This document shows positions 15,856 to 62,940 of a DNA stretch of 64,000 nucleotides, in pieces. The translations under genes were made by a program, and so were the position numbers. Source of the DNA: an uncultured Azospirillaceae bacterium (GTDB lineage Bacteria > Pseudomonadota > Alphaproteobacteria > Rickettsiales > UBA3002); assembly GCA_964564675.1 (NCBI GenBank), contig CAZMBI010000010.1:7-64006 (forward strand). Direction: 5' to 3'. The notes below the pieces were generated by a model. It made no database searches. It saw only the letters and a program-made list of their open reading frames with translations, and was not told where the DNA came from. How positions within the stretch are numbered: the stretch's first letter is position 1; every line of letters starts with the position of its first letter.

Positions 15856-15920
15856 TATCTTCTTTCATCCGGCGCCGTACGCATGCTATGCTGTATTGCA
15901 AAAAAAAAGGGAGCTGGTGC

Positions 15921-17492
15921 TTGGACAAGCTGCTGAAATTTATCAATACGCCGCAACAACACCCGGACATTAGCACGCCCGAGGCACGCAAACGGCATTT
16001 TGAAGAAATTTACGCCCCGTTTGACCCAAACCGCGCCGCCACGCAGGCGGGGCGGTGCTCCCAGTGCGGCATCCCCTTCTGCCAGATCCACTGCCCACTG
16101 CAGAATAATATCCCCGACTGGCTGATGCTAACCGCCGAAGGCCGCTTGCAGGAAGCATATACCATCGCCAGCGCAACCAACAATTTCCCGGAAATCTGCG
16201 GGCGCATCTGCCCGCAGGATAAGCTTTGCGAGGGTAATTGCGTCATCGAACACGGGTTTGAATCGGTCACCATCGGCCAGGTGGAAAAACACATCACCGA
16301 AACCGCGTTTGAACAAGGCTGGGTGCAGCCCATTCGTGTCGATCAGGAAAATAGCTTTTCCGTTGCTATCATCGGTGCCGGACCGGCCGGCATGGCCGCC
16401 GCCGAGGAGTTGCGCAAACTGGGTTATGCCGTACATATCTACGATCGCTATGACCGGGTCGGCGGGCTGATGATCTATGGGATTCCCAATTTCAAGCTTG
16501 ATAAACACGTGGTGGCCCGGCGCGAACAGCTAATGCGCAAAAGTGGCATTCAATTCCATCTGGAATGCGCCATCGGCGAGCATATCGCGCTGGCTGAGTT
16601 ACGCGCGCGCCACGATGCGGTGCTGATCGCCACCGGCGTATATCAGGCGCGGCCGCTAAGCGTGCCCAACGCGGCGCATGAGCAGATCATCCCCGCTCTC
16701 ACCTATCTCACTGCCAGCAACCGTAAAGGACTGGGCCTTTCCACTCCCCTTCCCGTTTATGGCGGAGGCCTGGGCTTGGGGCAGGAAACCGCCGCCCTCT
16801 CCTCCCGCCGGCAGACAGAGGAAAATGCCTGGGACCATCTGAACGCCCACGGTAAAAAAGTCGTGGTCATCGGCGGCGGCGACACGGCGATGGACTGTGT
16901 GCGCACCGCTGTGCGTCAGGGCGCTACCTCTATCACCTGCCTGTATCGCCGCGACCGCGCCAATATGCCCGGCAGCGCCCGCGAGGTAAGACATGCCGAA
17001 GAAGAAAGCGTGCGCTTTGAGTGGCTCTCCTCGCCCAAAGCCATTTCATGTGCTCCCCTGCCCGCTGGCAGTGGAGGGAAAGTAGCCGTCAAAGTCGAAA
17101 AAATGAAGCTCGGCTCCCCGGATGCTTCCGGCCGCCTCAAACCCATTCCGCTGCCCGACAGTGTCTACACGCTGGAAGCGGATATGGTCATCGCCGCGCT
17201 GGGGTTTGAGGCCGACGACTTGCCCGCCCTGTTTGGCGAACCCGACTTACAACGCAATAAATGGGGTAATCTCGCCATCGACGCCCACATGATGACTTCG
17301 CTGCCCGGCGTCTTCGCCGCTGGCGATATCGTCCGCGGCGCCTCGCTGGTGGTCTGGGCAATCAAAGATGGCCGGGAAGCCGCCGCAGCGATCGATCATT
17401 ATGTAATGTCATCCTGCGAAGCGCGAAGCGTGCGCGCAGGATCTCAAGCGGTGCCGTGCAGCGGTTTTGACGCGCGTCGCATGACGGAATAA
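15921..17492 (+). CDS. gltD: Glutamate synthase small subunit, with repeat-derived insertions
   Basis: RCSQCGIPFC..HCP, GRICPQD.LCEGNC, IIGAGPAG, GGGDTAMDC, AGDIVRGASLVVWAI; TTG start inferred after GGGAG. Confidence 0.96.
   Translation: MDKLLKFINTPQQHPDISTPEARKRHFEEIYAPFDPNRAATQAGRCSQCGIPFCQIHCPLQNNIPDWLMLTAEGRLQEAYTIASATNNFPEICGRICPQDKLCEGNCVIEHGFESVTIGQVEKHITETAFEQGWVQPIRVDQENSFSVAIIGAGPAGMAAAEELRKLGYAVHIYDRYDRVGGLMIYGIPNFKLDKHVVARREQLMRKSGIQFHLECAIGEHIALAELRARHDAVLIATGVYQARPLSVPNAAHEQIIPALTYLTASNRKGLGLSTPLPVYGGGLGLGQETAALSSRRQTEENAWDHLNAHGKKVVVIGGGDTAMDCVRTAVRQGATSITCLYRRDRANMPGSAREVRHAEEESVRFEWLSSPKAISCAPLPAGSGGKVAVKVEKMKLGSPDASGRLKPIPLPDSVYTLEADMVIAALGFEADDLPALFGEPDLQRNKWGNLAIDAHMMTSLPGVFAAGDIVRGASLVVWAIKDGREAAAAIDHYVMSSCEARSVRAGSQAVPCSGFDARRMTE
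16745..16822. repeat. Degenerate REP-like palindrome in frame within gltD
   Basis: CCCTTCCCGTTTATGGCGGAGGCCTGGG resembles the 19438 and 19510 hairpins; translated PLPVYGGGLGLG. Confidence 0.7.
17053..17078. repeat. Short degenerate REP-like hairpin within gltD
   Basis: CTCCCCTGCCCGCTGGCAGTGGAGGG (APLPAGSGG). Confidence 0.45.
17408..17487. repeat. GTCAT...ATGAC palindromic element forming the GltD C-terminus
   Basis: GTCATCCTGCG-AAGCGCGAAGCGTGCG-CGCAGGAT ... CGCATGAC. Confidence 0.7.
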
Positions 17493-17496
17493 ACCG

Positions 17497-20400
17497 ATGA
17501 ACCGTAATCAGCTTGCTTCCTATCTTACCGAACACGGCTTTTACGATCCCGCACACGAGCATGATGCCTGCGGTGTCGGGCTGGTCGCGGCGATCGACGG
17601 CACGCCGCGCCGCGAGATCGTGACGCTGGCCTGTGATGCGCTCAAGGCCGTCTGGCACCGTGGTGCGGTCGATGCGGATGGCAAAACCGGCGACGGCGCG
17701 GGCATCCATCTGCAGATACCGCCCCGCTTTTTCCGCGACCTGGCGAAACAGATGAAACGCCCGGTGCCCGCAGACGCGCCGCTGGCTGTCGGCATGCTGT
17801 TTTTACCGAAAAAGGATCTGCGTGCGCAAGAACAATGCCGCGCGCTGATTGAAAGCGAAATCCAGCGGCTGGGGCATCGTATCATCGGCTGGCGACAAGT
17901 GCCGATTGACCCCGGTGTCATCGGGGAGATCGCCAACGACACCCGCCCGGAAATTGAGCAGATATTAGTGGCAGCTTCGCCGGTGCAAAGCATACCTCTC
18001 CCAATGGAAGAGGTCGAAGTCGCGTCAGCAGCTTCAGGAGCGGGTAAAATTAATGTCTGTGACACCTTCGAGCGGGATCTTTACGTCATCCGCCGGCGGA
18101 TCGAGAAAGCGTTTGCCGAGGCTGGCATCACCCAGGCCTATATCACCTCGCTGTCCTGCCGGCATATTGTCTATAAGGGGCTGTTCAAAGCCGAACAACT
18201 GACCGCCTTTTACCCCGACCTGCTCGATAGCCGTTTTACCTCCGGCTATGCCATTTTTCACCAGCGCTTTTCGACCAATACCGATCCCAGCTGGGCGCTG
18301 GCACAGCCATTCCGCACCCTAGCCCATAACGGCGAAATCAATACGCTTAAAGGCAATATCAATGTCATGCGCAGCCATGAAGCGACCATGCACTGCGAGT
18401 TGTTGGACAAGTATCTGGATGATATCCGCCCGATTATTCCCAACCACGCCTCCGACACCGCCGCCTTAGATGCCGTGATGGAGCTGTTGGTTCGCGCCGG
18501 ACACGACGCACCGCTGGCCAAGCAGATTCTTATCCCGCCGGCCTGGAGCATGGCCGCCCATATCCCGCCGGCGCATCAGGATATGTTCAACTGCCTCAAT
18601 ACGATCTGCGAACCGTGGGACGGCCCGGCGGCGATTGCCGCCACCGACGGTCGCTGGGTCATCGCCGGGATGGACCGCGGCGGCTTGCGCCCCATGCGCT
18701 ATGCCCTGACTGAAGACGGCCTTCTGCTGATGGGCTCGGAAACCGGGATGGTGCCGATGGAAGAATCGCAGGTCATGGAAAAAGGCAAGCTCGGGCCGGG
18801 GGAATGTATCGGCATCGATTTGCTGCGCGGTGCGCTGTACAAAGACCGCGAACTCAAGGACCATCTCGCCGCCCAGCACCCCTATAGCGACTGGGTGAAG
18901 CAGATTAAGGTGATGAACTATAATCACCCTCTGCCCACCCGTCTCCCTAGAGGGAGAGGGAGCCCCTTAGCGGATGGGAATATGCGTCCCCTCCCCCTTC
19001 AGGGGGAGGGACAGGGAGGGGGCAACTCCCCGGAGTGGTTACGCGCCCACCAGCTTGCCGTCGGCCTCACCTTCGAAGACATCGAGACCATCCTCCACCC
19101 GATGGCGGCCGAAGGCAAGGAAGCCGTCGGTTCGATGGGTGACGACACGCCGCTGGCCATGCTTTCGGACAAACCGCGCGGGTTTCATCATTTCTTCCGC
19201 CAGAATTTTTCGCAGGTTACCAATCCGCCGCTCGATTCGCTGCGTGAGCGCCGGGTGATGAGCCTTAATACGCGCTTTGGCAATGACGGTAACTTCCTGT
19301 CACTGAGCAATTCCTATCAAGATTCCATCCTGCTGGAATCACCGGTGCTGCTGCGCCATGAAATGGAGGCGCTGCAGCGTCGTTTTGCCGATAAGATCAC
19401 CGTGATTAATACCTTGTTCGATGTGCCTCAAAACAACCTCCCCCCGTTTACGGGGGGAGACAGGAGGGGGGCAGCCAAACACTCTGAGCCAGAATCCACC
19501 CCCACCCTGCCCTCCCCCATAAATGGGGGAGGGTTGGGGGCATATGAATCGGAAAAAATAAACGCCCTGCGCCGCGGGCTGGACCGTATCATCGCCGAAG
19601 CCGAGGCCGCGGTTGAGGCCGAACGGCCCTATCTGCTGCTCACCGATAGCGGGCGCAGCCGCGAGTGTGCGGCGATCCCGATGATTCTGGCTACCGCCGC
19701 CATTAATACACATCTGGTGAAGCGGAAAATGCGCAAGCGCGCCTCGTTGTTGGTGTGTTCGTCGGAATGCTGCGACGTGCATTATCTGGCGGTGCTGATC
19801 GGGGTGGGCGCCACAGTGGTGCAGCCCTGGCTGGCTGAAGCGACCATCCGTGAGCGCTACGATCAGGGATTGTGCAGTCCCTCCGTCCTCCCACTCAAAG
19901 GCGCAGACCGAAAAGACTCAGGCGAGCGGGCGGGGGTTGATGAGACGCTACTCGCCCTAAAAACCGCCATGGAGCAGGGCCTGCTCAAAATCATGTCCAA
20001 AATGGGCATCTCGGTGGTCAGTTCCTATCGCAACGGCTATAATTTCGAGGCCATCGGCCTGTCGCGCGCGCTGGTTTCGGAATTTTTCCCCGATCTGCCC
20101 TCCCGCTTGTCGGGCATCGGCATGGCCGGCATCGAGCGCCGGGTGCTGGCATTACATAGCAAAGCGTATGGGGCGACCTCCACCGCTCGCCCCGCATCGC
20201 TGACGCCGCTGCCCATCGGCGGATTCTATAAATACCGCACGAGCGGCGAGCGCCACGCTTTCGGCGGCGAACCGGTTCACCTCCTGCAAAGCGCCGTCGG
20301 CGAGGATTCTTATGAACTCTACCGGAAATATGCGGCGATGGTCAACGAGCAGCCGCCGGTGGCATTGCGCCAGCTGCTTGACTTCGCCTCCGACCGCGCG

Positions 20401-22374
20401 CCCATCGATCGCTCGCAGGTGGAATCGATTACCGATATCCGTAAGCGTTTCGTGGCGCCCGCCATGTCACTGGGCGCGCTCAGTCCGGAGGCGCATGAAA
20501 CGCTTGCCATAGCCATGAACCGCATGGGCGGCATGAGTAATTCCGGTGAGGGCGGCGAAGGGCCGGAGCGCTTCACGCCGAGGACAGGCGGCGATAACGC
20601 CAATTCCGTTGTCAAACAGGTGGCCTCGGCGCGCTTCGGCGTCACCGCCTCCTACCTGAACCATGCCGAGGAGCTGCAGATCAAAATCGCGCAAGGCGCC
20701 AAGCCCGGGGAAGGCGGTCAGCTGCCGGGCTTCAAGGTGACCGCTGAAATCGCCCGCCTGCGCCATGCCACCCCCGGTGTCACGCTGATTTCCCCGCCGC
20801 CGCATCACGACATCTACTCCATCGAGGATCTCGCCCAGCTGATCTATGATTTAAAACAAATCAACCCGCACGCGCGGGTTTCGGTGAAGCTCGTCTCGCA
20901 GGCCGGTATCGGCACGATCGCCAGCGGCGTGGCCAAGGCCATGGCCGACAAGATCGTCATCGCCGGACACTCCGGCGGCACAGGGGCCAGCCCCTATTCG
21001 AGCATTAAATTCGCCGGCAGCCCGTGGGAGATGGGCCTGGCCGAGGCCAATCAGGTGCTCACGCTCAACCGCCTGCGCCATCGCGTGCGCCTGCAGACCG
21101 ATGGCGGCCTGAAGACCGGTCGCGATATCGTGATGGCCGCCATGCTCGGCGCCGAGGAATATGCCATTGGCACGGCCTCGCTGGTGGCGATGGGGTGCAT
21201 TCTGGTGCGTCAGTGCCATTCCAACACCTGCCCCGTAGGCATCTGCACCCAGGATGAAACGCTGCGCGCCAAGTTTGAAGGCACGGTGGAAAAAGTGGTG
21301 AATCTGTTCAGCTTTATCGCCGAGGATATTCGCGAGATTCTGGCGCGGCTCGGTTACACCCGGCTGGATGACGTGATCGGCCGCACCGATTTGCTCACTC
21401 AGATTGATCATGGCGGGCCGGATCTGGTGGATCTCGATTTGAATCCCCTGCTGGCGCGCGCCGATAACGGGTTTCAGCCCCGGATCTGTCAATTATCCAC
21501 CTCCCCTGTGAAGGCAGAGGATTTGGCATGGCGCAACGCGGTCGCCCCGTCGCTGGATGAACAGATGCTGGCCGATGCCCGGGAGAGTATTCTGGCAGGC
21601 AAAAAGGTCCAGCTGGCCTACAGCGTGCGCAATACGCACCGTTCGATCGGCGCGCGCTTAAGCTCGCTGCTGGTCCGCCATCTGGACACGCAACCTCTCG
21701 CCGACGGGCATATCACCATCCGCCTGCGCGGCTCGGCCGGTCAGTCGCTGGGCTGTTTTCTGGCGCGCGGCATCACTCTTGAGGTGCTGGGCGATGCCAA
21801 TGATTATGTTGGCAAGGGCTTATCCGGCGGCATCATCACGCTGCGCCCGCGCCCTTCCTCCCGCCTGGTGCCGCATGACAACAGCATCATCGGCAACACC
21901 GTGCTGTATGGCGCTACCGAAGGGGAGCTATTCGCCGCAGGACGCGCCGGCGAACGCTTTGCCGTGCGCAATTCCGGCGCTGAGGCGGTGGTCGAAGGCT
22001 GCGGCGCGCACGGTTGCGAGTATATGACCGGCGGCACGGCGGTGATTCTGGGGCCTGTGGGGGATAATTTTGCTGCAGGTATGACCGGCGGCATGGCCTT
22101 CGTCTATGATGAACAGGCCGCCTTTCAGGCCTGTTTGAACGGGGATTGCGTGATCGCCGAGCGCATCCGCTCGCCTCACTGGGAAGCGGTGCTGCACGCG
22201 CTGATCCGACGCCACGCCGCTGTGACGGAATCGCCACGCGCGCGGGAAATTCTGAATAACTGGGAGCATGCGCGCCCCCTGTTCTGGCAGGTGGTGCCCA
22301 AAGAAATGATTGCGAGGCTCGCGCATCCTTTGGTAGAAGACAGAGATCAGGCAGCAGGCATCGGGCATCAGTAA
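17497..22374 (+). CDS. gltB: Glutamate synthase large subunit, with repeat-derived insertions
   Basis: HDA|CGVG, HQRFSTNT, AHNGEINT, EPWDGPA, QGAKPGEGGQL, C..RQCHSNTCPVG, GXGXG domain. Confidence 0.98.
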   Translation: MNRNQLASYLTEHGFYDPAHEHDACGVGLVAAIDGTPRREIVTLACDALKAVWHRGAVDADGKTGDGAGIHLQIPPRFFRDLAKQMKRPVPADAPLAVGMLFLPKKDLRAQEQCRALIESEIQRLGHRIIGWRQVPIDPGVIGEIANDTRPEIEQILVAASPVQSIPLPMEEVEVASAASGAGKINVCDTFERDLYVIRRRIEKAFAEAGITQAYITSLSCRHIVYKGLFKAEQLTAFYPDLLDSRFTSGYAIFHQRFSTNTDPSWALAQPFRTLAHNGEINTLKGNINVMRSHEATMHCELLDKYLDDIRPIIPNHASDTAALDAVMELLVRAGHDAPLAKQILIPPAWSMAAHIPPAHQDMFNCLNTICEPWDGPAAIAATDGRWVIAGMDRGGLRPMRYALTEDGLLLMGSETGMVPMEESQVMEKGKLGPGECIGIDLLRGALYKDRELKDHLAAQHPYSDWVKQIKVMNYNHPLPTRLPRGRGSPLADGNMRPLPLQGEGQGGGNSPEWLRAHQLAVGLTFEDIETILHPMAAEGKEAVGSMGDDTPLAMLSDKPRGFHHFFRQNFSQVTNPPLDSLRERRVMSLNTRFGNDGNFLSLSNSYQDSILLESPVLLRHEMEALQRRFADKITVINTLFDVPQNNLPPFTGGDRRGAAKHSEPESTPTLPSPINGGGLGAYESEKINALRRGLDRIIAEAEAAVEAERPYLLLTDSGRSRECAAIPMILATAAINTHLVKRKMRKRASLLVCSSECCDVHYLAVLIGVGATVVQPWLAEATIRERYDQGLCSPSVLPLKGADRKDSGERAGVDETLLALKTAMEQGLLKIMSKMGISVVSSYRNGYNFEAIGLSRALVSEFFPDLPSRLSGIGMAGIERRVLALHSKAYGATSTARPASLTPLPIGGFYKYRTSGERHAFGGEPVHLLQSAVGEDSYELYRKYAAMVNEQPPVALRQLLDFASDRAPIDRSQVESITDIRKRFVAPAMSLGALSPEAHETLAIAMNRMGGMSNSGEGGEGPERFTPRTGGDNANSVVKQVASARFGVTASYLNHAEELQIKIAQGAKPGEGGQLPGFKVTAEIARLRHATPGVTLISPPPHHDIYSIEDLAQLIYDLKQINPHARVSVKLVSQAGIGTIASGVAKAMADKIVIAGHSGGTGASPYSSIKFAGSPWEMGLAEANQVLTLNRLRHRVRLQTDGGLKTGRDIVMAAMLGAEEYAIGTASLVAMGCILVRQCHSNTCPVGICTQDETLRAKFEGTVEKVVNLFSFIAEDIREILARLGYTRLDDVIGRTDLLTQIDHGGPDLVDLDLNPLLARADNGFQPRICQLSTSPVKAEDLAWRNAVAPSLDEQMLADARESILAGKKVQLAYSVRNTHRSIGARLSSLLVRHLDTQPLADGHITIRLRGSAGQSLGCFLARGITLEVLGDANDYVGKGLSGGIITLRPRPSSRLVPHDNSIIGNTVLYGATEGELFAAGRAGERFAVRNSGAEAVVEGCGAHGCEYMTGGTAVILGPVGDNFAAGMTGGMAFVYDEQAAFQACLNGDCVIAERIRSPHWEAVLHALIRRHAAVTESPRAREILNNWEHARPLFWQVVPKEMIARLAHPLVEDRDQAAGIGHQ
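17995..18045. repeat. REP-like palindrome in frame within gltB (copy 1)
   Basis: CCTCTCCC-AAT-GGAAGAGG followed by a second imperfect hairpin GAAGT..AGCTTC and GAGCGGGT. Confidence 0.65.
18925..19023. repeat. Paired REP-like hairpins in frame within gltB (copy 2)
   Basis: TCTCCCT-AG-AGGGAGA (18942-18957) and CCCTCCCCCT-TC-AGGGGGAGGG (18989-19010). Confidence 0.85.
19438..19540. repeat. Inverted pair of REP-like hairpins in frame within gltB (copy 3)
   Basis: CTCCCCCCGT-TT-ACGGGGGGAG (19438-19459) and CCCTCCCCCAT-AA-ATGGGGGAGGG (19510-19533). Confidence 0.88.
19878..19938. repeat. Highly degenerate REP-like insertion within gltB (copy 4)
   Basis: C-rich start and G-rich end; extra peptide SPSVLPLKGADRKDSGERAGV. 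Confidence 0.45.
21497..21522. repeat. Degenerate hairpin within gltB (copy 5)
   Basis: CCACCTCCCCTGTGAAGGCAGAGGAT (STSPVKAED). Confidence 0.45.
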
Positions 22375-22440
22375 CGTGCTTGCCTGCTGATGCCTGACAA
22401 CTGATGCCTGATGCCTGACAACTGATGCCTGATGCCTGAC
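22344..22440. repeat. Inverted heptamer tandem array
   Basis: About 4 GCATCAG-like units (22344-22371) facing about 8 CTGATGC/CTGACAA units (22387-22440). Confidence 0.9.
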
Positions 22441-27902: not shown

Positions 27903-27924
27903 TCCCTCCCTTTGAGGGACAGGG
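27903..27924. repeat. Intergenic REP-like hairpin between convergent glmU and cinA
   Basis: TCCCTCCCT-TTG-AGGGACAGGG, same type as the gltB hairpins. Confidence 0.5.
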
Positions 27925-62861: not shown

Positions 62862-62940
62862 TCCGTCATTCCAGCGAAAGCGGGAATCTAGGTTCAATCG
62901 CTCACCTGGATGCGATCCCCCCTTGCGCGGCAATGACGAG
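62862..62940. repeat. Intergenic GTCATT...AATGAC palindromic element
   Basis: CGTCATTCCAGCGAAAGCGGGAATCTAGGT ... ACCTGGAT...GCGCGGCAATGACG. Confidence 0.8.

Follow-up and report, generated by a model that had tools for sequence, protein, structure and literature searches.

Why do the two genes of a single enzyme, glutamate synthase, carry a series of DNA hairpins that are translated as part of the protein? The locus (Table 1) lies in a 64,000-nucleotide stretch of the genome of an uncultured alphaproteobacterium, here called the window, and the original prediction was that a REP-like repeat family, belonging to an undescribed system, had repeatedly colonised this one enzyme while keeping the reading frame. 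Both ORFs are indeed uninterrupted; in gltD an ATG at 15888, upstream of the TTG, could also serve as the start. Their products score above the NCBIfam thresholds for the two glutamate synthase subunits, small and large, and retain the invariant residues of both, including the Fe-S cysteines and the nucleotide-binding motifs of GltD. Most relatives of GltB are about 1500 aa long, compared with 1625 aa in the window. The named ones are Rickettsiales or Alphaproteobacteria MAGs, and DNA matching the window occurs in microbial-mat metagenomes; no RNA data set was listed among the matches, which has no bearing on expression.

Table 1. Genes, insert sites and additional repeats of the glt locus (window positions; p refers to the hairpin score compared with coding-DNA controls).
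Feature	Position	Strand	Description	Net insert (aa)	p
gltD, glutamate synthase small subunit	15921..17492	+	intact ORF, 523 aa, TTG start		
gltB, glutamate synthase large subunit	17497..22374	+	intact ORF, 1625 aa		
Site A	16742..16825	+	eroded head-to-head TM pair in gltD	+24	0.002
Site A'	17049..17074	+	eroded single TM hairpin in gltD	+6	0.0027
Site B	17995..18052	+	eroded unit of the long-loop TM subfamily in gltB	+22	0.0013
Site C	18916..19041	+	126 nt in gltB, two units	+23	
Site D	19429..19560	+	132 nt in gltB, two units	+41	
Site E	19876..19930	+	strongly eroded, likely unit in gltB	+16	0.10
Site F	21495..21525	+	eroded single TM hairpin in gltB	+10	0.002
Second repeat family, GTCATCC...GGATC hairpin	17408..17443	+	GltD C-terminal tail, fold z -3.0		
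Third repeat family, inverted heptamer arrays	22341..22440	+	across the gltB stop		

To delimit the inserts, we aligned both proteins with the enzyme of Azospirillum and with homologues from the family and from metagenomes; 42-46 of these homologues span each insert site of GltB and 32-33 each site of GltD. At seven sites the window proteins are longer than these homologues, by in-frame inserts of 6-41 residues. An additional expansion of 6 aa in the vicinity of GltB 891-898 is not repeat-derived. The hairpin score goes beyond that of coding-DNA controls at six of the seven sites (p 0.0013-0.0027); site E (19878), although not significant alone, likely derives from the repeat as well, as it aligns with a long repeat subfamily flanking nuclease genes of the DUF559 family. 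The three perfect hairpins pointed out earlier in gltB (18989-19010, 19438-19459 and 19510-19533) are present, with stems of 10, 10 and 11 bp, respectively. The proposed number of about eight elements turned out to be too low: three of the sites (A, C and D) hold two units each, which makes about ten units at seven sites. Site A consists of a forward triplex-motif (TM) unit at 16747-16783 followed by a reverse unit and encodes the peptides PLPVYGGGLGLG...AALSSRRQTEEN, the same two-peptide arrangement as in the insert of trmFO. Apart from a single mismatch, the core of site B equals copies found in ileS and at other places. Site C combines a reverse unit (18926-18962) with a fresh forward one (18987-19024), and in site D a forward unit (19435-19471) and a reverse unit (19499-19536) are separated by a spacer. 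In the structure models (GltD, mean pLDDT 71; GltB residues 25-930, mean 61 with 358 residues below 50) sites A, A', B, C, D and E fall between secondary-structure elements, low confidence being widespread; site A' is predicted to sit in a beta-hairpin turn, and the modelled inserts may lie in loops, possibly at the surface.

Judged by its consensus, the repeat is a published one. A profile HMM built from 58 genomic seeds gives 52 matches in the genome at E<=0.01 and 94 at E<=1, compared with 0 and 7, respectively, in the reversed genome. Even at E up to 10 this profile misses the five eroded glt sites, and an orthologue-anchored score was therefore adopted. The unit is a C-run/G-run hairpin with a G-rich tail, and it agrees with the consensus CCCTCNCCC N3-6 GGGNGAGGG N3 GGGNGAGGG of the BoxC/PIT/TMECO repeats (Holder et al., 2015, PMC4666352). 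Seven genomic copies match this consensus exactly, 19 with at most one and 28 with at most two mismatches (reversed genome: 0, 0 and 1); both units of site C are among those within two mismatches. The TTA second loop and the inverted pairs of the published consensus are present too, the latter at sites A, C and D and also in trmFO, coaBC, folD, miaB and hpnE. Folding programs give hairpins for the TM units, the triplex being a property of the published motif. By sequence, the glt inserts are the BoxC/triplex-motif (TMECO) repeat and not a glt-specific system, so the repeat family is not the undescribed one that had been supposed. Two features set it apart from the E. coli repeats as Holder et al. 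describe them. In strain MG1655 those are always intergenic (PMC4666352), whereas here, of 68 merged TM units, 22 lie outside ORFs and 46 inside, in 26 ORFs (three of them in N-terminal extensions that are uncertain); location is a descriptive trait and does not define the repeat by sequence. Besides, that account links them to no mobile element, whereas here the repeat brackets DUF559.

The genome contains four DUF559 genes (PF04480, Vsr-fold, PD-(D/E)XK). Three of them are embedded in frame, two in valS and one in pgl, and the fourth stands free between two amidotransferase genes. All four are arranged as forward unit, DUF559, inverted unit, and sites A and D repeat this layout with a short spacer where the DUF559 gene would be. 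The proteins keep the conserved residues of the family and match PDB 3hrl. Considering their mutual identity of 55-59% and low GC content (43-46%, against 61% for gltB), the four copies look separately acquired. Among 25 DUF559 loci of relatives, a hairpin is found within 200 nt upstream in 24 and downstream in 22, compared with 0 of 47 control windows. In 41 genomes 24 of the 37 strong DUF559 matches lie in open frames longer than 300 aa; DUF559 occurs in 15 of the 16 TM-positive genomes and in 7 of the 25 others, kin not being independent in this count. There are exceptions to this association: one genome (G022) has a bracketed DUF559, yet no exact TM copy, and in another one (G019, 86% complete) TM copies are present and DUF559 was not found. 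A database search retrieved 446 longer proteins with DUF559; the hosts among the best 120 of them comprise tRNA synthetases, MetH, PriA, RecO, HrpA, Mfd and restriction specificity subunits, and no glutamate synthase domain occurs in these 120. Glutamate synthase is reached by the cassette in two of the genomes and contigs analysed: G006 has an in-frame DUF559 cassette ahead of the catalytic cysteine of GltB, and in L104 a TM-DUF559 begins in frame in GltB loop E, with no return to GltB seen before the contig ends. As for the mobilisers that the original prediction had listed, a repeat-flanked nuclease is thus present in the form of DUF559, and a RAYT was rejected, none being found in the genome (0 matches to the Y1 (HUH) transposase, PF01797, in the 99% complete assembly). 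In the literature searched (mostly open-access, without supplements) we found no report that connects DUF559 with these repeats, nor one that describes repeat inserts in glutamate synthase; gltB could be among the REP-carrying ORFs listed in Additional file 3 of PMC3733652.

Several host proteins of the cassette or the repeat have an unusual architecture. In the valyl-tRNA synthetase (G000:C6:11959-15690, L060; 1243 aa) two entire DUF559 cassettes are inserted in frame, along with other repeat inserts, and the length of 6-phosphogluconolactonase (G000:C21:7278-8582, L073) is nearly doubled by an in-frame cassette with duplicated repeat units. The isoleucyl-tRNA synthetase (G000:C20:19481-22924, L072) carries two TM inserts and an insert of about 190 aa resembling an acetyltransferase domain; a similar Pfam combination is seen in P0075 and P0091.

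We suppose, with a probability of roughly 60%, that the glt inserts are nuclease-less remnants and offspring of the BoxC/TM cassette bracketing DUF559, introduced and swapped by recombination with incoming DNA, and that glutamate synthase retains them as several of its loops tolerate extra residues. A different view would be that the repeats drive themselves, a hairpin or triplex stalling replication and giving rise to slippage and recombination, while DUF559 is a mismatch-repair-type passenger between them. Units duplicated locally in tandem, both in pgl and at the free cassette, are consistent with such instability, and so is the report that E. coli strains show more rearrangement at TM loci, with no tie to mobile elements found there (PMC4666352). 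Also, VsrA of Caulobacter, which has the same Pfam domain and on which SOS-linked DNA damage depends, was interpreted, in the one functional study of a DUF559 protein found, as a very-short-patch repair enzyme and proposed to act on T/G mismatches (PMC12907096); a repeat-flanked, in-frame-fused DUF559, on the other hand, is a feature of the system described here. A mere passenger would hardly be bracketed by inverted TMs almost invariably, nor be expected to accompany TM repeats from genome to genome, and a nuclease domain in frame in tRNA synthetases and many other hosts is hard to square with repair. The parallel SRM-ssnA-SRM system, moreover, is reported to cut at its own repeats (PMC11893778). 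We consider the self-driven origin rather unlikely.

The age of the copies bears on the recombination that our preferred reading, the cassette-derived one, invokes. A sister strain, about 99% identical, is represented by contigs of low depth in one other sample (three runs). These cover the eroded sites A', B, E and F gaplessly, so that these inserts are shared, while both fresh sites differ. Site C, 126 nt in the window, measures 60 nt in the sister strain, which is the typical loop length, with no hairpin in the 30 of 60 letters seen; instead of the 132 nt of site D the sister strain has 42 nt (30 of them seen), starting with a different hairpin (SPPLPHDGEE). Both length differences are multiples of 3. 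The 387 nt between C and D contain 11 substitutions, compared with 3.1 expected from the 37 in 4679 nt elsewhere (p 3e-4), and five of the six listed are synonymous. This near-identical pair of alleles, the only one obtained (with half or less of the site C letters seen), points to replacement at C and D, and together with the SNP-rich tract it is better explained by recombinational tract exchange than by clean insertion. A cluster look-up for strain variants found 6 of 10 proteins, each in a single-member cluster. With fresh and eroded copies side by side, the idea of repeated in-frame colonisation of glt over time is borne out.

Whether glt is a true hotspot was assessed with the orthologue-anchored score, the comparator being the main contig of G022 (2.35 of 2.7 Mb), which provides 1026 orthologue pairs out of 1673 genes called by a simple gene caller; eroded intergenic copies are outside the reach of this score. 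At 218 sites the proteins are longer here than in G022 (one comparator, which does not separate gain from loss); 45 of these sites, in 36 genes, are hairpin-like at p<=0.01, about two being expected falsely. They number four in gltB, three in valS and two in gltD. For gltB alone p equals 6.5e-5, or about 0.07 after correction for 1026 genes, and gltD and gltB pooled have 6 hairpin-like sites against 0.27 expected. Of 72 sites in the genome, with both flanks of one DUF559 cassette merged into one site, six are within the 6.5 kb of gltDB; placing the sites at random gave such a concentration in 3 of 20,000 simulations. Hence gltDB is the densest repeat locus of the genome, and the locus bias proposed originally is confirmed to this extent. 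A system specific to glutamate synthase is not, since 39 of the 45 repeat-like inserts fall in 34 other genes, the 120 best DUF559 fusions listed lack glutamate synthase domains, and a close relative rich in the repeat (G001: 21 exact motif copies, three of them inside genes) has a clean gltB, which speaks against targeting. Copies also cluster outside glt, 32 of 66 sites being within 5 kb of another one (18.1 expected, p 0.003). The statement that other coding sequences have no copies is correct for the window genes tested and wrong for the genome: valS, ileS, serS, argS, miaA, miaB, trmFO, trmJ, folD, coaBC, hemF, uvrD, xseA, ampG, serB and pgl are among the hosts. The copies at 27903 and 61665 are confirmed as intergenic, and weak. 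Per Mb the TM density is 79 outside genes and 28 inside. Genes 60-70% identical to G022 hold 29 of the 45 sites, compared with 2 in genes above 70%, and in the comparison with G022 no hairpin-like site was detected in the RpoB-, RpoC- and CarB-sized genes, named here from their N-termini. In G001 two adjacent genes (L356) have TM copies, and their orthologues here (G000:C31:2243-4660) contain inserts of 29 and 33 aa with no clear hairpin.

The loops themselves are the common factor in other bacteria. Among 96 non-redundant GltB homologues, expansions of at least 5 aa occur in 16 intervals between 733 conserved columns; these intervals include all five GltB loops B-F, and each of the five has a TM-type insert in another organism. 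The TM carriers, 8 of the 78 rows in a tree that omitted rows shorter than 750 aa (carrier L338 among them), require 8 separate changes. Loops C, D and E and the region 890-905 hold elsewhere SRM-like hairpins or heptamer repeats, and in GltB of L329 hairpins of the SRM type are found in loops that take TM inserts. As unrelated repeats thus use the same GltB loops, what they share is the loop and not a sequence target; the alignments indicate that these loops were filled independently in other lineages, in some of them by unrelated repeat families. For the GltD sites A and A' no recurrence was seen in the 32-33 homologues. The junction of gltD and gltB is occupied by an SRM-GIY-YIG-SRM unit in G033 and by GIY-YIG in L083. 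GltB of L296, L329 and L299 has three to six separate loop expansions with mixed repeat types, and in one clade (L090, L092-L095, L102, L104, L131 and L132) a conserved cysteine-containing ORF of about 190-250 aa, probably secreted, lies between gltD and gltB.

These data also bear on the explanation that the hotspot results from relaxed selection on a dispensable enzyme, more than from loop tolerance or local re-seeding. The genome does encode a large NAD-glutamate dehydrogenase as well, and near full-length similarity to GltB was found in only 12 of 24 genomes of the same family, several of which are incomplete. However, gltD and gltB are intact with their invariant residues kept, the differences in the C-D tract are mainly synonymous, genes of the essential type (valS, ileS, argS and serS) are colonised too, and other lineages fill the same GltB loops; we regard relaxed selection as improbable. 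That the hairpins were domesticated to control how the glt mRNA is translated or how stable it is, or that insertion is targeted to glutamate synthase, is very improbable. In favour of this view, gltDB is the densest locus and the fold of site D is far better than that of shuffled sequences (z -4.1). However, the old sites A (z +0.4) and E (z +1.7) fold no better than shuffles and the others are marginal, the fresh sites differ within the species, the units lie in both orientations and several frames, most copies reside in other genes, and TM elements of E. coli are reported to have neither promoter nor terminator activity (PMC4666352). Good folding of the fresh site D and its loss in the old sites A and E are signs of neutral decay and not of a conserved RNA structure, and the suggested control of nitrogen assimilation through mRNA structure is not upheld. 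The glt hotspot is statistically real, and what probably accounts for it is loop tolerance together with re-seeding in the neighbourhood, not a nitrogen-control system.

The origin of the inserts from the TM-DUF559-TM cassette may then be pictured as follows. By analogy with Ssn at its repeats, DUF559 would nick DNA at or near the hairpin, and the nick would promote repair or recombination in which the repeat is copied or replaced. The insertion mechanism need not keep the frame itself, as out-of-frame and core insertions would be removed by selection. A filled loop and its neighbourhood would be hit again more often because the resident repeat supplies homology as well as a site for cutting. 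Presumably, the additional peptides are translated and close to neutral. A bolder version, which we put forward tentatively and judge somewhat less probable than not, is that TM-DUF559-TM forms a selfish cassette which is autonomous and corresponds to Ssn/SRM, with a Vsr-fold nuclease instead. This nuclease would act on single-stranded DNA, incoming or exposed, by cutting at the hairpin or triplex, and would bring about homing-like replacement of alleles in conserved genes; the cassette would travel as an in-frame domain that is translated and not spliced out, and would leave repeat scars. Large enzymes such as GltB would serve as shared landing pads for at least three unrelated systems of a repeat plus a small gene, taking turns in the same loops, and here the turnover would be in progress within one species.

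Palindromes inside genes (RPEs and REPs) and a repeat-flanked nuclease (Ssn/GIY-YIG) are already known. Like Rickettsia palindromic elements, which are described as translated in frame in unrelated housekeeping genes of an alphaproteobacterium (PMC10969869, PMC3733652, PMC3184786), the TM inserts occupy in-frame positions in conserved genes. According to the same descriptions, however, RPEs measure about 105-150 bp and encode a conserved peptide, whereas TM units are 25-45 bp long and lie in both orientations and several frames, and unlike RPEs as described there TM units have a candidate partner nuclease; by length and peptide the glt inserts are not RPEs. The intragenic GTAG/CGTC REPs of Di Nocera et al. 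(2013, PMC3733652) resemble them in that dimers encode 20-30 aa in genes for tRNA synthetases and for repair, some of which carry two, but the GTAG/CGTC tag of those REPs is absent from TM units and, unlike in RAYT REPtrons, no Y1 transposase was found in the genome. The closest parallel is Ssn/SRM (NTS-ssnA-NTS; Chenal et al., 2025, PMC11893778), in which a small single-domain nuclease gene lies between oriented hairpin repeats that also exist as many lone copies. Ssn is reported to bind its hairpin repeats, to cut single-stranded DNA and to alter the integration of transforming DNA (PMC11893778). Its activity on incoming single-stranded DNA is established, while the DUF559 cassette is known here from sequence. 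Furthermore, Ssn belongs to the GIY-YIG family and its GTC-type repeats are described as rarely located in genes, in contrast to the DUF559 and the C-run/G-run repeat found here, and whole DUF559 cassettes are in frame in enzymes, unlike Ssn/SRM as reported in that paper.

Ever since BoxC/triplex repeats and in-gene palindromes were described, it has been an open question how they spread. The Vsr-fold nuclease that lies between BoxC/TM units is a directly testable candidate spreader, for which Ssn is a worked precedent, and the DUF559 proteins of the cassettes might find use as structure- or sequence-specific nucleases. In comparison with single-insert cases, gltDB adds an age series within one operon and a within-species pair of alleles pointing to recombinational replacement; its inserts form a natural map of insertion-tolerant loops of glutamate synthase and are no evidence for a new nitrogen-control mechanism.

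The other repeats of the locus deserve a separate mention. The strict SRM pattern has no match at any glt site; one strict SRM-pattern hairpin is present in the window, at 62864, and true SRM-GIY-YIG units are a separate matter, strict SRM copies bracketing a GIY-YIG gene on contig C16. The second family of Table 1 encodes part of an extended C-terminal tail of GltD and has about nine similar sites in the genome; as a strict SRM it was rejected, the pattern being unmatched, though it resembles Ssn-related/CGTC REPs. The heptamer arrays at the gltB stop lack 21 nt (three units) in the sister strain, and short-unit arrays like these flank a four-helix-bundle gene (PF05635) on C3. Finally, at G000:C2:161426-187750 a phage portal gene (Pfam) and capsid-like and tail-like genes (recognised by eye) are scattered among host genes, with a TM pair that lies either in the portal gene or a short way upstream; the region resembles a dispersed gene transfer agent and may represent a route for incoming DNA.
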